IMG/VR virus record: IMGVR_UViG_3300032236_001180
Coordinates: 1 to 64,000 of that record
DNA: 64,000 nucleotides
Strand: one strand, 5' to 3'
From: a virus
Part shown: piece by piece, positions 7,472 to 31,063 of the stretch
Position numbering within the stretch: the first letter of the stretch is position 1
How the letters are laid out: the number at the start of each line of letters is the position of its first letter
Position numbers and translations under genes: made by a program
The notes under the pieces: model-generated
Told to the model about the DNA's origin: nothing
The model's database searches: none
What the model saw: only the letters and a program-made list of their open reading frames with translations

Positions 7472-7541
7472 CTAGAGCCGTGGGCGATGCCTCCCGAGAG
7501 GGTTGGAACTTCTCCTTTGCCTATACGGATGTCGAATTCTA
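7472..7541 (+). ncRNA. Candidate structured cis-regulatory RNA in the rlpA leader
   Basis: Nested stems TAGAG/TTCTA, CCGTGGGCGA/TTGCCTATACGG and a CCC-GAGA-GGG GNRA hairpin; GC-rich island ending 8 nt before the ATG. Confidence 0.55.
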
Positions 7542-7549
7542 TTAAACTA

Positions 7550-7921
7550 ATGCTTTTAAACAAAACAATTCAAACCCTTTCGGTCGTTGCTTTGAGTCTT
7601 GGTGCTCTTGCCCCAATTCCTGCACAAGCAACGACCTGTTCTTATGCCTCACATTATGGAATTGGTGACGGTTACGATGGGCAAAGAACTGCTAATGGAG
7701 AACGGTTCAATGCCTATGGCAATTCTGCCGCACATCGTTATCTTCCATTTGGAACCAGACTTGTAGTCACCAACGAATCAAATGGAAAATCTGTGATTGT
7801 AAGAATTAACGATCGTGGTCCATATGTGAGCAGTAGAAGTCTTGATCTTTCTTATGGTGCTTTTTCATCAATTGCATCACCAAGAAGAGGAGAGATTAGG
7901 GTTTGTTATTATAGACTCTAA
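7550..7921 (+). CDS. rlpA: RlpA-like (DPBB) lytic transglycosylase/expansin-like protein with signal peptide
   Basis: TANGERFNAY..AAHRYLPFGTRLVVTN...RINDRGPY...LDLS. Confidence 0.9.
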   Translation: MLLNKTIQTLSVVALSLGALAPIPAQATTCSYASHYGIGDGYDGQRTANGERFNAYGNSAAHRYLPFGTRLVVTNESNGKSVIVRINDRGPYVSSRSLDLSYGAFSSIASPRRGEIRVCYYRL

Positions 7922-7932
7922 TTGATAAATAT

Positions 7933-7956
7933 GGGGAGTCCCAAACTCCCCTTTTT
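7933..7956 (+). terminator. Rho-independent terminator
   Basis: GGGGAGT-CCCAA-ACTCCCC-TTTTT. Confidence 0.75.
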
Positions 7957-8385
7957 ATGTTTAATTTTAATTTTGGAAATAAAAAACCAGACATCAAAAA
8001 ATATGCAATTGTGGGAATTATCTTAACTTCTATAATTGCGTCACTTTCACAATGCACTGGAATTCAAGAAACATCTTTATGGGATGTATTTGATGAAGTA
8101 CAACGTAAGTTTTTTCCTCAAACGATGCTGAATGATTTCATCATCAAAGATCCCGAAAAATTGGATCGCAGAGTCAAAAGAGATGTGGATCTGGCAATTG
8201 CTGATTATGAAAGGTTGACAGGTGATGATGAAAAAGTTAGAATGCCTAAACCACGATACTCAGAGAAACCACCAGACAGGTCTTATGCCCAATCACTTCT
8301 TGGAGGTGAAATGCGTATCTGTGCTCCTTGGAAAGATGATTGTCCATTATTAGATCAAATAAATGCGGATGTAACTCAGCGGTAG
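7957..8385 (+). CDS. Hypothetical membrane-anchored phage protein
   Basis: N-terminal hydrophobic helix; 3' end overlaps tRNA-Gly. Confidence 0.6.
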   Translation: MFNFNFGNKKPDIKKYAIVGIILTSIIASLSQCTGIQETSLWDVFDEVQRKFFPQTMLNDFIIKDPEKLDRRVKRDVDLAIADYERLTGDDEKVRMPKPRYSEKPPDRSYAQSLLGGEMRICAPWKDDCPLLDQINADVTQR

Positions 8386-8436
8386 AGTTCCTGCTTGCCA
8401 AGTAGATTGTCGTCGGTTCGAATCCGATCATCCGCT
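8365..8436 (+). tRNA. tRNA-Gly(GCC)
   Basis: Acceptor GCGGATG/CATCCGC, anticodon loop TTGCCAA, TTCGAAT T-loop, U73; CCA not encoded. Confidence 0.92.
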
Positions 8437-8492
8437 TTCTCAGAAATTCTGAGATATAAATAAACTTCGTAGTTGTAAAACTTAACAAATTT

Positions 8493-9986
8493 ATGAAATT
8501 TTTCAATCAACTGATGCTTGCACCTGTTGCACTTGGAATGATTGCTCCCTCTGTTGCGAATGCCGCAGATCTTAATATTGCAGGAGTCAATCAATATAGT
8601 TCCTCAGAGCAGGTCACAAGTATCAGTCAATTCTCCGATGTTCAACCTACGGATTGGGCATACGGAGCACTGAGCAATCTTGTGGAACGTTACGGTTGCG
8701 TTGCTGGTTATCCCAATGGCACCTTTGGTGGTGGTAGGGCAATGACTCGTTTTGAAGCAGCAGCACTTCTTAACTCCTGCTTGGATCGTGTTACTGAAGT
8801 CACCGATGAACTTCGTCGTCTGATGGCAGAATTCAAATCCGAACTTGCTGTTCTCAAAGGTCGTGTTAGTGGTCTTGAGGCAAAGGTGGGCAAACTTGAG
8901 GCAACTCAGTTCTCTACCACAACCAAACTGAAAGGTGAAACAAACTTCATTCTTGGTGGAGTTCCTGGTTATACCACAAATACTGGTACTGTTGCTGGTA
9001 GCACTGCGTTTAACTATGACCTTCGTCTGAATCTGGATACTTCTTTTACTGGTAAGGATTTGCTTCGCACTCGTCTGCGTTCTGGTAACTTCTCCAGTGC
9101 TCCTTTTGGTTCTTCTTCGTCACTGTTCAAACTTGACAAAGCAGAAACTTCTCAAGGTACTGGAACTTCCAGCAACATCTGGTTGGACCGTCTTTACTAC
9201 CAGTTCCCTGTTGGTAAGAGTGTAACTCTGACTGCTGGTCCTCTGCTTCGTAATACTGAGATGGCATGGGTTCCTTCTGTTTATAAGTCGGATGTCCTTG
9301 ACTTCTTCCAACTTGGTGGTGCTTCTGGTGTCTATAACAAGGCAACTGGTGCTGGTTTCGGTGCTCAGTATCGTCAACCTGGAACTCAAGGTTTCATTGC
9401 TGGTGTGAACTATGTTGCCGAAGATGGCAGCAATACTTCTACTGGTGAATTTGATGGCACTGGCAAACTGAATACTCTTGCTCAGATTGGTTATCGTGCT
9501 CCTCAGTGGGGTCTTGGATTCGGTTATCGTTATGGTACTCCTGGAACTCGTGTTCGTACCTTTAATGCTCTTGGTGGTGGTTCTGGTGCTCTTGCATACG
9601 GTCAAGTCTCCAATAGTTATGCATTCAATGGTTACTGGCAACCTAAGAAATCTGGTATTGTACCTTCCGTAAGTGTTGGTTATGGTGTGAATACCATCAA
9701 CGGTAATATTACTGCAAAAGGTGCTACTGATTCTAATTCTTGGTTCGCAGGTCTTCAATGGTCTGATGTATTTGCCAAAGGCAACTCTGCTGGTGTTGCT
9801 TATGGTCAACCAGGAAATGCACAAGGTTTGAGTGCAACCGCATCGATGCTTGAAGTATTCTACAAGTATCGTGTAAGTGATAACATCAGCATTACTCCTG
9901 CTGTGTTCTATGTTGGCAATAATCAGGCAACTCTGAATGCTGCATCTCAATGGGGTGGTGTGATTCAAACCACTTTCCGTTTCTGA
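8493..9986 (+). CDS. Cyanobacterial outer-membrane porin (Som/iron-uptake porin type: SLH domain plus OprB-like barrel)
   Basis: Signal peptide, FSDVQPTDWAY..L..LVERYGC..GYP SLH motif, FSTTTKLKG, C-terminal TTFRF. Confidence 0.93.
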   Translation: MKFFNQLMLAPVALGMIAPSVANAADLNIAGVNQYSSSEQVTSISQFSDVQPTDWAYGALSNLVERYGCVAGYPNGTFGGGRAMTRFEAAALLNSCLDRVTEVTDELRRLMAEFKSELAVLKGRVSGLEAKVGKLEATQFSTTTKLKGETNFILGGVPGYTTNTGTVAGSTAFNYDLRLNLDTSFTGKDLLRTRLRSGNFSSAPFGSSSSLFKLDKAETSQGTGTSSNIWLDRLYYQFPVGKSVTLTAGPLLRNTEMAWVPSVYKSDVLDFFQLGGASGVYNKATGAGFGAQYRQPGTQGFIAGVNYVAEDGSNTSTGEFDGTGKLNTLAQIGYRAPQWGLGFGYRYGTPGTRVRTFNALGGGSGALAYGQVSNSYAFNGYWQPKKSGIVPSVSVGYGVNTINGNITAKGATDSNSWFAGLQWSDVFAKGNSAGVAYGQPGNAQGLSATASMLEVFYKYRVSDNISITPAVFYVGNNQATLNAASQWGGVIQTTFRF

Positions 9987-10006
9987 TATACTCATAAGAT
10001 GAGTTG

Positions 10007-10036
10007 AACCACCCCTTTATGGGGTGGTTTTTATTA
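10007..10036 (+). terminator. Rho-independent terminator between porin and pstS
   Basis: AACCACCCC-TTTAT-GGGGTGGTT-TTT. Confidence 0.75.
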
Positions 10037-10057
10037 ACTGTAATTTATACCCTTTTT

Positions 10058-11026
10058 ATGAAACTCAAACAGTTTATTATTCCTGCTCTGATTGCTGCTC
10101 CTGTTGCCGCATTTGCAGGTCAAACATTAAATGGTGCGGGAGCAACTTTTCCGGCACCAATCTATCAACGTTGGTTCAATGATTATTCCAAGTCTTCTGG
10201 TAATCGTATTAACTATCAGTCTATTGGGAGTGGTGCTGGCATTCGTCAGTTTATTGCGGGAACTGTAGATTTTGGTGCTTCTGATGAACCAATCACGGCA
10301 AAGGATGCTGCCAAAGTGAAACGTGGTGTGGTTCAGATTCCTATGGTTGGTGGCACTATTGCTGTTGCCTATAACAAACCAGGATGTAATCTGAAACTGA
10401 CTCAGGCACAAGTTGTGGATGTGTTCAATGGTAAAATCAATGATTGGAAACAACTTAAATGTGCTTCTGGTCCCATTACTGTCGTTCATCGTTCCGATGG
10501 TTCTGGTACTACTTTTGCTTTCACGAACTCACTACGTTCATTCTCGTCAACTTGGACTACTGGTGTGGCTAAATCGGTAAATTGGCCGGTTGGTCTTGGT
10601 GCCAAAGGCAATGAAGGTGTTTCTGCTACTATCAAACAGAAGGCAGGAACTATCGGTTATGTGAGTTATACCTTTGTGAAGGAAGGTCATCTTCAAGCAG
10701 CAGCAATTCAGAATAAGGCAGGGAAGTTTGTTCTTCCAAATACTAATTCTGGTTCTGCCGCACTCAACCAGATTCAGGTTGATCCAGTAACTCTTGCTGG
10801 TGAAGATCCTAATCCTGCTGGTGCTCGTTCCTATCCTATCTCCACTCTTACTTGGATTCTTGCCTATAAGACTGGAAATGGTGCCAAGGAGGACTCTGTG
10901 AAGGGTGCTCTGAACTATATGCTCAGTGGCAAGGCACAGATGATTGCTGATGACCTTGGATATGTTCCTTTGAGTGGTTCAATTCTCAACAAGGCACGTA
11001 TTGCCGTCAATCGTATCGGAAACTGA
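10058..11026 (+). CDS. pstS: Phosphate ABC transporter substrate-binding protein
   Basis: GAGATFPAPIY, YQSIGSGAG, DFGASD, RSDGSGTT, GAKGNEGV, YPIST. Confidence 0.97.
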   Translation: MKLKQFIIPALIAAPVAAFAGQTLNGAGATFPAPIYQRWFNDYSKSSGNRINYQSIGSGAGIRQFIAGTVDFGASDEPITAKDAAKVKRGVVQIPMVGGTIAVAYNKPGCNLKLTQAQVVDVFNGKINDWKQLKCASGPITVVHRSDGSGTTFAFTNSLRSFSSTWTTGVAKSVNWPVGLGAKGNEGVSATIKQKAGTIGYVSYTFVKEGHLQAAAIQNKAGKFVLPNTNSGSAALNQIQVDPVTLAGEDPNPAGARSYPISTLTWILAYKTGNGAKEDSVKGALNYMLSGKAQMIADDLGYVPLSGSILNKARIAVNRIGN

Positions 11027-11053: not shown

Positions 11054-11125
11054 TGCGGAGTGGACAAGTGGTATGTCATCAGACTCATAATCTGAAAATC
11101 GTAGGTTCAATTCCTACCTCCGCCA
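11054..11125 (+). tRNA. tRNA-Met(CAT), initiator-like
   Basis: Cloverleaf with anticodon loop CTCATAA, U1xC72 mismatch, TTCAATT T-loop. Confidence 0.88.
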
Positions 11126-12380: not shown

Positions 12381-12409
12381 TTGACAGACCAACAGATTTT
12401 TGGTAGGAT
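12381..12409 (+). promoter_or_regulatory. sigma70-type promoter
   Basis: TTGACA-17 nt-TAGGAT. Confidence 0.65.
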
Positions 12410-12434: not shown

Positions 12435-12617
12435 ATGGAAACTTTTACAATTGAAGAATTTCAAGAAGACTTTGATAATCTTTTAGAAAGAGTTGAGAAT
12501 GGTGAATCTTTTGTGATTAAAAGTGAATATGGAAATGCTGTGCTTATTCCATATGCTGAATACAAAGAAGTGGATGAACTTGTTGAATGTTTGTGTAATC
12601 ACGACGATGGTTGTTAA
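12435..12617 (+). CDS. Phd/YefM-like antitoxin-fold protein with no adjacent toxin
   Basis: FTIEEFQEDFDNLLERVENGESFVI...AVLIPYAEY matches the Phd/YefM N-terminal pattern. Confidence 0.65.
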   Translation: METFTIEEFQEDFDNLLERVENGESFVIKSEYGNAVLIPYAEYKEVDELVECLCNHDDGC

Positions 12618-12625
12618 TTCTTTCT

Positions 12626-12713
12626 GGTCGTCAGAACAGGTGTTCAGAGGAGTCTTATAAACTCTTTGCCCCAGATTAGGGCCTTTGGCAGGGTTCGATA
12701 CCCTGGGCGACTA
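12626..12713 (+). tRNA. Non-canonical tRNA with TAT anticodon (Ile-like) and long variable arm
   Basis: Acceptor GGTCGTC/GGCGACT-A; D-arm GAAC-AGGT-GTTC; anticodon arm GGAGT-CTTATAA-ACTCT; V-arm GCCC-CAGATTA-GGGC; T-arm CAGGG-TTCGATA-CCCTG. Confidence 0.8.
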
Positions 12714-12776
12714 TTACTAAATACAACGAGAGGGTTTATTGCTCTCTTTTTTAATGTAATATTGTAAAATTTTTTT

Positions 12777-13277
12777 ATGAAAATTGGTTTTAATTGTAGC
12801 TCATTTGATTTATTTCACGCTGGGCACGTTACTATGCTCAAAATGGAAAAAGAATTATGTGATTATTTGAAAGTCGGACTTCAAGTTGATCCGACCGTAG
12901 ATCGTCCTGGAATTAAAAATAAACCAGTACAATCTGCTTATGAACGTTATGTTCAACTTCAAGGATGCAAGTATGTTGATGAAATTCTTGTTTATGAAAC
13001 AGAAGAAGATCTTCTTAATTTAATTCAATCTCAAACAATTCATATAAGATTTTTGAGTGAAGAATACAAAGATAGAGATTTTACTGCAAAACAATATTGC
13101 ATTGATAATGGTATAGAATTATTCTTTCATTTAAGAAGGCACAAATATTCTTCAACTGAAATTAGAAATAGAGTTCATCATCTTGAAGAACAAAAAAGAT
13201 TGAAAAAAATAGAAGAAAATACAATAGAACAATATTCTCCAGAAATTTTAAAAAAATATTCTATTGAAGAGAATTAA
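12777..13277 (+). CDS. Cytidylyltransferase (TagD-like)
   Basis: FDLFHAGH (HxGH), YVDE, YSSTEIR. Confidence 0.88.
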   Translation: MKIGFNCSSFDLFHAGHVTMLKMEKELCDYLKVGLQVDPTVDRPGIKNKPVQSAYERYVQLQGCKYVDEILVYETEEDLLNLIQSQTIHIRFLSEEYKDRDFTAKQYCIDNGIELFFHLRRHKYSSTEIRNRVHHLEEQKRLKKIEENTIEQYSPEILKKYSIEEN

Positions 13278-29376: not shown

Positions 29377-29409
29377 ATGTTAAGAAATCAACACATTTCT
29401 TAATCTTCT

Positions 29410-29512
29410 GTAACCGAGATCACCAGAAGTAAAGCATCTCTCATATCCGTACTGGAGGGTGGTACGGAAATAACTGTATCATTCAGTTCCCCCTGAATTC
29501 TTATTTACCCTT
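29410..29512 (+). ncRNA. PhotoRC-II-like structured RNA in the psbA 5' UTR
   Basis: GAGAT/ATCTC and TCCGTACT-GGAGGGT-GGTACGGA stems directly upstream of a cyanophage psbA. Confidence 0.7.
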
Positions 29513-30170: not shown

Positions 30171-31063
30171 AGGGAACTGTGCCCTTGCTGAGTAATCAGT
30201 AAGTGAAAATCGGGTGAACTGCTGGAACCCTAAGTTACTAAAATGTTACTTGACTTATATAAATAACTCTGGTAACATAAACTTTATGACTAACCAGTAC
30301 TTATCTTTTATTGAGGAATGTAAATCAAAAACATATCCTCCCAATACTTATCTTGAAGAACACCATATTGTTCCAAAACACGATGGTGGTTCAGATAATT
30401 CAGAAAATCTCATTTCATTATCTTTTGACGACCACATACTCGCACATAAAATAAGATACGATGTATACGGTCAAGTTTATGACTTAGCAGCATATAACTT
30501 GATGTGTGGTTTTGATGGTGAAGGTTGGAGACTTCTTAGAGTTGAAGGTGCTTATAAAACACACGAAGCACTGAGATTATCCAAGAAAAACTTTTGGAGT
30601 TCTGATTATCAAAAAGAAATGTCTGCTCGTTCTGTAAAGTCTGAGTATGCTATGAAAATGAGAAGTGTTGGTGGTAAAATTGGTGGTAAGAATAGAAACA
30701 AAAATGTTGCTATTACTTCTACTGATAAGTATATTTTCTCTCACAATAAAGTAGAAACAATTTGTATTATAAATTGTGAAACTGGTGGAGAAGTTTTAGA
30801 AGAACTGCAAAAAATAGTTCCCAATCAAAACTTCAAAAGAGTTACACCTCTTCTAAAAGGTGAAAGAGAAAATGCTTATGGTTGGTCTTGTAAAAAAGTT
30901 TAGTAATACGGCAATCAGCATCCAAGTCCTAGATACATCTAGGAAAGGTTCAGAGACTACCTGAGGGGTTTAGTCCCCTTAATAACAGGTTTAAGTGCCC
31001 GACAACCTAATACAAATAGGTTGATGATATAGTCCACTCCTTATGAAAATAAGGTACAATAGG
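30171..31063 (+). mobile_element. Group I intron (893 nt) in psbA
   Basis: Exon ends in U with P1 GCAU/GUGC; AGGGAAC pairs with exon-2 GTTCCCT (P10); core elements TGCTGGAA, AATCAGCA, TCAGAGACTAC, GATATAGTCC; terminal G; splicing restores AMH-GSLVT and a 360-aa D1. Confidence 0.95.
30286..30903 (+). CDS. Intron-encoded HNH homing endonuclease
   Basis: EEHHIVPKHDGGSDNSENLISL...HILAH; own late promoter TATAAATA 30258-30265. Confidence 0.9.
   Translation: MTNQYLSFIEECKSKTYPPNTYLEEHHIVPKHDGGSDNSENLISLSFDDHILAHKIRYDVYGQVYDLAAYNLMCGFDGEGWRLLRVEGAYKTHEALRLSKKNFWSSDYQKEMSARSVKSEYAMKMRSVGGKIGGKNRNKNVAITSTDKYIFSHNKVETICIINCETGGEVLEELQKIVPNQNFKRVTPLLKGERENAYGWSCKKV

Follow-up and report, generated by a model that had tools for sequence, protein, structure and literature searches.

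A five-arm tRNA(UAU) of cyanophages as a putative isoleucine tRNA for AUA codons

What is a transfer RNA (tRNA) with a UAU anticodon and one arm too many doing in the genome of a cyanophage? The question is raised by a locus in the IMG/VR virus record IMGVR_UViG_3300032236_001180, of which positions 1 to 64,000 (64,000 nucleotides, nt) were analysed and are referred to here as the window. The window is a cyanomyophage fragment with Rfam gathering matches to the PhotoRC-II RNA and to a group I intron; the whole record is 124,555 bp long, has 34% G+C and is 59% complete according to CheckV. The element in question is an 88-nt cloverleaf in which a fifth, long arm stands between the anticodon arm and the T arm. 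A first-pass annotation had offered three readings of it: a decoder of AUA that is independent of TilS, a mischarged tRNA that recodes AUA, or a nuclease-resistant or decoy tRNA. The reading favored here, with a probability of about 0.7, is that it is a functional phage tRNA that decodes AUA and is charged with isoleucine. Its expression, processing, charging with isoleucine and the role of its extra arm are all inferred.

The cloverleaf features named in the first-pass annotation are all present at positions 12626-12713 of the plus strand, with the addition that the anticodon stem can be drawn with 7 rather than 5 base pairs (bp). The minimum-free-energy fold of this interval is the five-arm cloverleaf itself, at -33.1 kcal/mol (z = -2.58), an energy matched by 2 of 200 shuffled sequences; folding energy alone is modest evidence for the tRNA. 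The decisive evidence for a real gene is covariation in its homologues. A pattern scan of viral contigs, in which the loops of the anticodon arm, the extra arm and the T arm were specified, yields matches on at least 120 contigs. Among 50,697 phage records, searched at blastn sensitivity, the only isolates with the long-armed form are the Synechococcus phages S-CBWM1, S-SKS1, S-SRM01 and S-CRM01, in all of which it is unannotated. The pattern matches listed, the window and these isolates make up a set of 125 matches. A perfect 7-bp acceptor stem is present in 123 of them (the remaining two are one gene cut by a contig end and one chance match), the length is 88 nt in 111, G1-U72 is found in 112 and the discriminator A73 in 124.

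Covariation was assessed in an alignment of 53 distinct type-A sequences, which covers 27 base pairs and 1431 cells. Pairing is intact in 99.4% of the cells, 19 of the 27 pairs have changed on both sides, and none of 500 shuffles reaches as high a value; slid controls are paired in 39-45%. The acceptor and T helices are paired in every one of the 53 sequences, and the basal pairs of the anticodon arm (G-U, A-U and G-U) are near-invariant in the family. All differences between the window copy and its closest relatives (L028, L032 and L041) are compensatory and lie in the anticodon stem. The D-loop GG (G14 and G15) is invariant across the family alignment and presumably pairs with the T loop, where T69, T70 and C71 (UUC) are invariant as well. 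In the linker between the extra arm and the T arm, C58, T60 and G62 are invariant and T59 and T61 are conserved in at least 90%. A T-loop variant with AUCGUAA in place of UUCGAAU, found in 3 of 61 unique members and also in an orphan 3' half in S-CRM01, has positions 54 and 58 swapped, so that the reverse-Hoogsteen pair would persist. On this comparative evidence the long-armed tRNA gene is real, under strong structural selection, phage-borne and of unusual architecture. One pair that the first-pass annotation had counted toward isoleucyl-tRNA synthetase (IleRS), C4-G69, is not a family feature: the position is A-U in 32, C-G in 19 and G-C in 2 of the 53 sequences.

As a control for circularity, the scan was repeated with half-patterns that left the other half unconstrained. 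With the 5'-half pattern, the extra-arm loop reads C(A/C)GAUUA in 59 of 61 unique sequences; the other two are one CAGAUCA and one 5' half fused to tRNA(CAU). With the 3'-half pattern, the anticodon is UAU in 56 of 56 unique sequences, all of which have the anticodon loop YUUAUAN. A minority of members (L004, L007, L021, L063 and L112) have a normal-looking D arm. A pattern scan of 185,579 species genomes returned 34 matches, of which three are real: two identical Nostoc copies and one copy in a metagenome-assembled genome, within a phage-like array of 14 tRNAs. In the other 31 the pairing of the acceptor and T stems fails, and they are attributed to chance. Since only 3 of the 34 cellular matches are real, the family is, by these scans, essentially phage-borne.

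The slot that the gene occupies bears directly on its function. In the window the tRNA follows a small Phd/YefM-like open reading frame (ORF), and loci were fetched by the Phd-like protein alone (the best 80 of 494 relatives, 79 of them evaluable). Downstream of the Phd-like ORF is a class-I tRNA(UAU) of 72-76 nt in 37 of these 79 loci, a long-armed one in 30 and none in 9; tRNA(CAU) comes first in two and tRNA-Leu in one. After tRNA(UAU), the next gene in the slot is usually tRNA(CAU). The class-I tRNA(UAU) genes of this slot score 52-67 bits with the Rfam tRNA model, and in the marine isolate S-SM2 (NC_015279) the class-I gene in the slot, which follows a gene annotated as 'Phd-like antitoxin', is annotated as tRNA-Ile. 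On a tree of the Phd-like protein (55 rows, few columns), the label long-armed or class-I needs 17 changes, at least seven of them forced by well-supported branches, against a mean of 18.5 for shuffled labels. The loci L264 (long-armed) and L280 (class I) are 93.5% identical in DNA up to the first bases of the tRNA, diverge across the tRNA and are similar again beyond it, and the same break pattern is seen in the pair L213/L215. Given that both forms are scattered over the tree and that the break in homology falls at the 5' end of the tRNA, the long-armed and class-I tRNA-Ile(UAU) genes are, as judged from these alignments, interchangeable, allele-like cassettes that have been swapped repeatedly. 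That two architectures have traded places so often in a single slot suggests a selection that depends on the host, exerted for example by the type of IleRS or by tRNA-targeting defences.

Of the readings in the first-pass annotation, the TilS-independent decoder is thus the best supported: no anticodon other than UAU appears in the unconstrained rescan, its loop is canonical, A73 is retained, and the genes lie in tRNA arrays and in the slot of class-I tRNA-Ile(UAU). ARAGORN itself names several relatives tRNA-Ile(tat), at 88-95 nt, some of them in phage arrays where 32-36 tRNA genes, tRNA-Ile(gat) among them, are clustered. The gene-encoded UAU anticodon would decode AUA with no need for lysidine synthesis by TilS, and the host IleRS would most likely charge the long-armed tRNA with isoleucine. 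The tRNA would in this way supply AUA-reading capacity to a phage of low G+C content in which ATA accounts for 521 of 36,596 codons (14.2 per 1000, in 113 ORFs of the record). In structure it is a variant of the class-I cyanophage tRNA-Ile(UAU): the body is of class-I size, the D arm is minimal, the anticodon stem is lengthened, and an inserted 15-nt hairpin follows that stem directly. A search for a phage-encoded TilS (PF01171) found none in the 124.6-kb record; at 59% completeness this does not establish its absence.

The meaning of ATA codons in these phages was examined in 210 tblastn alignments to the fetched viral loci, at 40-97% identity. ATA codons (n = 557) align with isoleucine in 50.4% (ATT or ATC 42.7, ATA 7.7), with valine in 18.3% and with leucine in 9.0%. 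The corresponding values for ATT codons are 52.1% (ATT or ATC 48.1, ATA 4.0), 21.1% and 8.9%, whereas leucine codons align with leucine in 58-70%. Because ATA is substituted like ATT and unlike leucine codons, ATA is by this evolutionary test an isoleucine codon in these phages, and a tRNA that inserted leucine or serine at ATA would consequently be a mistranslator rather than a recoder.

The extra arm does not stand where long arms are usually found. In the class-II tRNAs for leucine, serine and tyrosine, the arm comes late in the variable region and goes together with matching anticodons and a matching D-arm architecture. The first-pass annotation spoke of a variable arm, but the hairpin in the phage tRNAs abuts the anticodon stem (0 nt between them), and the linker of 5-6 nt on its other side is as long as a class-I variable loop. 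Arm placement, the UAU anticodon, the 4-nt D loop and the class-I-like body all depart from class II. When the 15-nt hairpin is removed and the remainder is compared with the tRNAs of five phage arrays, the body (76-80 nt with CCA) is nearest to class-I tRNAs and not to those for leucine, serine or tyrosine in the same arrays. No clear parent emerges among the five arrays, where the top matches are the tRNAs for Thr, Lys, Met, Trp and Leu at 62-75% identity and tRNA-Ile(gat) is not at the top.

What the arm does resemble is the anticodon arm of tRNA-Ile(GAU). Its loop carries GAU, the anticodon of the major tRNA-Ile, at the anticodon position and an A at the position of A38. The pair C29-G41 is listed among the determinants of Escherichia coli IleRS (PMC9976931). 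Among class-I phage tRNA(UAU) genes, 26 of 27 carry this pair in their anticodon stem, against only 6 of 60 among the long-armed ones (in the window it is A-U), and the third pair of the extra arm counted from its loop, the equivalent of C29-G41, is C-G in 57 of 60 long-armed genes. The closing pair of the extra arm is C-G in all 60, its G being fixed by the search pattern, and the other two arm pairs covary freely. These features suggest, tentatively, that the arm is an IleRS handle that presents an anticodon arm like that of tRNA-Ile(GAU), with G34, A35, U36, A38 and a C29-G41-type pair. A tRNA-Ile with UAU is a poor substrate of E. coli IleRS, and a change in IleRS was needed in Mycoplasma mobile (PMC3575796), which makes such a role attractive; the extra GAU arm might compensate for a UAU anticodon that a non-adapted IleRS accepts poorly.

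Several points weigh against a handle of this kind. Class-I forms work in the same slot without an extra arm, so the arm is not strictly required for charging. C29-G41 is found in only 17 of 26 phage tRNA-Ile(GAU) genes of the fetched loci, and it is a determinant in E. coli rather than one established for cyanobacteria. At the equivalent of U33 the GAU loop carries A or C, and at the position of t6A37 it carries U; an arm that branches off the core here might also fall short of the anticodon-binding domain of IleRS. If the arm is an identity handle all the same, it would be a new solution to the problem of reading AUA without lysidine while being charged by IleRS, and a natural precedent for orthogonal tRNAs whose identity elements are moved onto an added arm.

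The Phd-like ORF in front of the tRNA has a codon usage of its own. Among the loci fetched by the tRNA, a Phd-like homologue lies directly upstream of the long-armed gene in 94 of the 152 that have a scorable upstream ORF. Across 107 distinct Phd-like ORFs, ATA makes up 350 of 605 isoleucine codons (58%) against 2109 of 9926 (21%) in the other ORFs of the same loci; because the Phd-like ORFs are homologous to one another, a Fisher p-value for this excess is inflated and independence is overstated. Other A-ending codons are not enriched (TTA 15% against 30%, GTA 28 against 30, ACA 33 against 35, AGA 44 against 56). The two isoleucines of the C-terminal IRIHTDHEEG motif are encoded by ATA in 77 of 91 and 75 of 104 cases. 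A promoter within the IRIH motif was considered as the cause of the ATA preference and is unlikely to be the whole story, ATA still accounting for 198 of 410 isoleucine codons (48%) outside the motif. The ATA share is 50% before class-I genes, 52% before long-armed genes and 34% where no tRNA(UAU) follows directly (7 ORFs). Examples of the Phd-like ORF are found at L209, L215, L232 and S-SKS1 (L002, 1320-1493). At L020, L082 and L086 a different small ORF precedes the long-armed tRNA, with the motif '...IAYTYKPD.VYVF.C...G(K/T)LI..'.

The codon bias suggests that translation of the Phd-like ORF is coupled to AUA-decoding capacity. The window ORF is an atypical member: only its N-terminal part matches the Pfam profile (positions 1-47 of 74), it lacks the IRIHTDHEEG motif and has a different C-terminus, and its isoleucine codons are all ATT. 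A combined scheme, more doubtful than the handle taken by itself, would give the tRNA two anticodon-type arms, UAU for the ribosome and the GAU arm for IleRS, and would make the Phd-like ORF an AUA-gated leader that depends on the tRNA that follows it, as a feedback or timing switch. The control of genes by bldA and TTA codons in Streptomyces offers an analogy for such a codon-gated switch. The Phd-like ORF may otherwise act as an autoregulator.

Other explanations of the locus fare less well than an isoleucine-charged decoder. A decaying pseudogene or a chance cloverleaf would be consistent with a gene that is unannotated and whose window copy is missed by both ARAGORN and Rfam, and partial copies do exist (the 3' half in S-CRM01, and the 5' half fused to tRNA(CAU)). 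Its probability is nevertheless negligible, and it is effectively refuted, by covariation throughout the family, zero broken pairs in the window copy, an occurrence on at least 120 viral contigs and close relatives that differ by compensatory changes. The first-pass annotation had named a lack of homologues with compensatory changes as the mark of a pseudogene; such homologues are abundant. Mischarging is a very improbable alternative, in which the long arm would turn the tRNA into a substrate of the leucyl-, seryl- or tyrosyl-tRNA synthetase and AUA would be read partly as another amino acid. The substitution profile of ATA is that of isoleucine, with leucine aligned to it about as often as to ATT, and this, together with a hairpin-less body that is class-I-sized and nearest to class-I tRNAs, leaves the recoding proposed by the first-pass annotation disfavored. 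An arm with 0 nt before it and 6 nt after it is unlike class-II arms, and the long-armed form is interchangeable with class-I tRNA-Ile(UAU). What speaks for mischarging is the combination of a long extra arm with A73, and the precedent of the nematode nev-tRNA-Ile(UAU), which is reported to be charged with leucine (PMC3333845 and PMC4300185).

The nuclease-resistant or decoy tRNA of the first-pass annotation is a minor alternative. A function outside translation is unlikely, although less so than mischarging. The tRNA would be a mimic that acts with the Phd/YefM-like protein as a decoy, sponge or partner for a host factor that recognizes tRNA-Ile, such as an anticodon nuclease or the toxin of a toxin-antitoxin system, with the GAU arm as bait. 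An invariant extra-arm loop is what a protein-binding site would be expected to show, and linkage to the Phd-like ORF is seen from both sides (upstream in 94 of 152 tRNA-fetched loci, with tRNA(UAU) downstream in 67 of 79 protein-fetched loci). According to PMC5389517, allo-tRNA(UAU) genes lie near toxin-antitoxin systems and most are suggested to be non-translational, and the Nostoc copies described here sit among HNH, AbiEii-like and HTH genes. The same slot also holds ordinary class-I tRNA-Ile(UAU) genes that score 52-67 bits, however, which makes decoding the simplest shared function, and the anticodon loop retains all decoding features, with UAU in every case. No Phd-like neighbor accompanies 58 of the 152 long-armed copies, many of which stand in plain tRNA arrays, and the window ORF, which covers only profile positions 1-47 of 74, has no toxin gene adjacent to it.

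A decoding, isoleucine-charged tRNA remains the preferred reading, and a number of observations count against it. ARAGORN does not call a tRNA at 12626-12713 and reports only Gly(gcc) at 8365-8436 and Met(cat) at 11054-11125 in the window. Even at E<=10, Rfam finds neither a tRNA nor a tRNA-Sec on 12500-12850, and with its tRNA model (gathering threshold 29 bits) the long-armed copies in L002, L003, L004 and L007 are likewise unreported. CCA is encoded in only 22 of the 125 matches, so that maturation needs the CCA-adding enzyme of the host. An unmodified U34 could also read AUG. Among the sequencing runs listed, only DNA metagenomes contain this stretch, and no RNA run does. Six allo-tRNA(UAU) species were inactive as suppressors in E. 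coli, according to Mukai et al. 2017 (PMC5389517), and the codon test speaks to the evolutionary meaning of ATA and not to the cargo of the tRNA.

The failure of detection has a consequence of its own. The usual tools, namely tRNAscan-type models, Rfam and often ARAGORN, overlook the long-armed gene. Inventories of tRNA genes in freshwater cyanophages, like analyses of their codon adaptation, therefore under-count a probable AUA decoder that occurs on at least 120 viral contigs. Should the tRNA be functional, the translation apparatus would have to tolerate a five-arm junction, a minimal D arm and a 7-bp anticodon stem within a 7/5 frame of acceptor and T stems.

Table 1. Parts of the five-arm tRNA(UAU) and adjacent features in the window
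Feature	Positions	Strand	Basis or remark
Five-arm (long-armed) tRNA, anticodon UAU, 88 nt, CCA not encoded	12626..12713	+	Sequence, fold, family covariation; relatives are tRNA-Ile(tat) according to ARAGORN
Acceptor stem, 7 bp including G1-U72 and U6-G67	12626-12632 with 12706-12712	+	Sequence
Lone nucleotide (A) between acceptor and D stems	12633	+	Sequence
Reduced D arm, 4-bp stem GAAC/GUUC, 4-nt loop AGGU	12634..12645	+	Helix 100% paired, 3/4 pairs doubly changed
Anticodon arm, 7-bp stem, loop CUUAUAA	12647..12667 (stem 12647-12653 with 12661-12667; loop 12654-12660; UAU 12656-12658)	+	
Extra arm, 4-bp stem GCCC/GGGC, 7-nt loop CAGAUUA with GAU central	12668..12682	+	Resembles tRNA-Ile(GAU) anticodon arm
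Linker CUUUGG, six unpaired nt from extra arm to T arm	12683..12688	+	About class-I variable-loop length
T arm, 5-bp stem CAGGG/CCCUG, loop UUCGAUA	12689..12705	+	Helix 100% paired, 4/5 pairs doubly changed
Discriminator A73	12713	+	Sequence
Phd/YefM-like small ORF, stop codon 8 nt before the tRNA	12435..12617	+	PF02604 26.6 bits (cut-off 29.8), E 5e-6; phrog_375 'Phd-like antitoxin' 7.6e-11
Promoter-like site TTGACA-17-TAGGAT, TG-extended, upstream of the ORF-tRNA unit	12381..12409	+	Consensus match only
Terminator-like hairpin and T-run, 15 nt past the tRNA 3' end	12728..12748	+	

The promoter-like site listed in Table 1 is a weak candidate, since the scan found 11 such sites against 8.7 expected; terminator-like hairpins number 2 against 0.6 expected. 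Just upstream of the tRNA locus is a host-like gene block on the plus strand (7487-11026). By eye it comprises an RlpA-like ORF, a porin-like protein of 497 residues whose N-terminus is of the SLH type (8493-9986) and, at 10004-11026, a PstS-like phosphate-binding protein. The tRNA(CAU) of the window (11054-11125, plus strand), called Met by ARAGORN, shows by eye a U1-C72 mismatch together with G4-C69 and G5-C68. The tRNA(CAU) genes that follow tRNA(UAU) elsewhere have C4-G69 and C5-G68 of the TilS type and are Ile2-like; the window gene may be a Met, an initiator-like or an Ile2 tRNA. Farther downstream are the PhotoRC-II RNA (29391-29481) and the group I intron (30844-31055), which may sit in psbA.

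Related loci add further observations. The two Nostoc assemblies (L153 and L142; the tRNA is at 3064-3151 of L153) carry an identical type-A tRNA(UAU), with neighboring genes for an HNH endonuclease, a ParB-HTH protein, a poly-gamma-glutamate hydrolase, an HTH_17 protein (excisionase-type) and AbiEii-like AAA proteins, in what looks like a prophage or a defence island. In S-CRM01 an orphan 3' half, comprising the extra arm, the T arm and the 3' strand of the acceptor stem, stands beside a full copy (L004, about 1508-1555), and on one viral contig an orphan 5' half is fused directly to tRNA(CAU); these halves look like traces of recombination at the locus. Other over-long tRNAs occur in the arrays, namely tRNA-Asn(gtt) of 86-89 nt and tRNA-Cys(gca) of 82-86 nt (L001, S-CBWM1, 582-670; L021, 2127-2208; L081, 1741-1826), and extra arms on normally class-I tRNAs may be a more general feature of phages. 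On related viral contigs, Rfam matches to the wcaG RNA (97 bits; L226, 2286-2386) and the abiF RNA (54 bits; L007, 3634-3670) lie near the tRNA module.

Among known tRNAs with similar shapes, tRNA-Sec shares a tetraloop D arm, a longer anticodon stem and a long extra arm with the phage family, but has a 13-bp acceptor/T branch and a UCA anticodon, and the window locus has no match to the Rfam tRNA-Sec model. The nematode nev-tRNA-Ile(UAU) likewise combines a UAU anticodon with a long extra arm; nev-tRNAs are class-II, leucine-like and charged with leucine in vitro, as reported in PMC3333845 and PMC4300185, whereas the phage family has a class-I-like body and a different placement of the arm, and ATA evolves as an isoleucine codon.

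The closest relatives in shape are the allo-tRNAs. Allo-tRNA(UAU) species have a long extra arm, a D-arm tetraloop, a lengthened anticodon stem, a preference for UAU, possible five-stem junctions and toxin-antitoxin-type neighbors (PMC5389517). Allo-tRNAs differ from the phage family in the split of the 12-bp acceptor/T branch, 8/4 or 9/3, and in having mostly G73 or U73, a serine-like identity; they stem from Acidobacteria, Clostridia and Proteobacteria. The phage tRNAs are 7/5, with A73 and an invariant extra-arm loop, and are found on cyanophage-like contigs. An 8/4 fold was rejected for them, because an A in column 8 of the alignment faces a C or G in column 81 in 51 of 53 sequences, which leaves no eighth acceptor pair. 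Literature searches returned no description of a 7/5 long-armed phage tRNA(UAU); the supplements of PMC5389517 might show related 'irregular 7/5' tRNAs, and overlap with these is possible.

In mechanism, the nearest parallel is the TilS-independent tRNA-Ile2(UAU) of M. mobile, where AUA is likewise read by a genomically encoded UAU and not by a lysidine-modified CAU. That tRNA is class I and works with an adapted IleRS (Arg865) and an adapted ribosome (PMC3575796); the phage family has a remodelled tRNA body, is phage-borne and presumably meets host enzymes that are unadapted. Functionally closest to the family is the class-I cyanophage tRNA-Ile(UAU), which shares the slot order of Phd-like ORF, tRNA(UAU) and tRNA(CAU), the loop CUUAUAA, A73 and often G1-U72. 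The class-I form is 72-76 nt long, has a normal D arm and a 5-nt variable loop, carries C29-G41 in its own anticodon stem in 26 of 27 genes and is detected by Rfam. The long-armed form differs by its 4-nt D loop, the single nucleotide between acceptor and D stems, the 7-bp anticodon stem, the 15-nt extra hairpin and the rarity of C29-G41 (6 of 60). What this analysis contributes is the equivalence of slot with class-I tRNA-Ile(UAU), the swapping of the two as cassettes, the codon test, the apparent relocation of a C29-G41-type pair to the extra arm and the putative ATA-rich leader.

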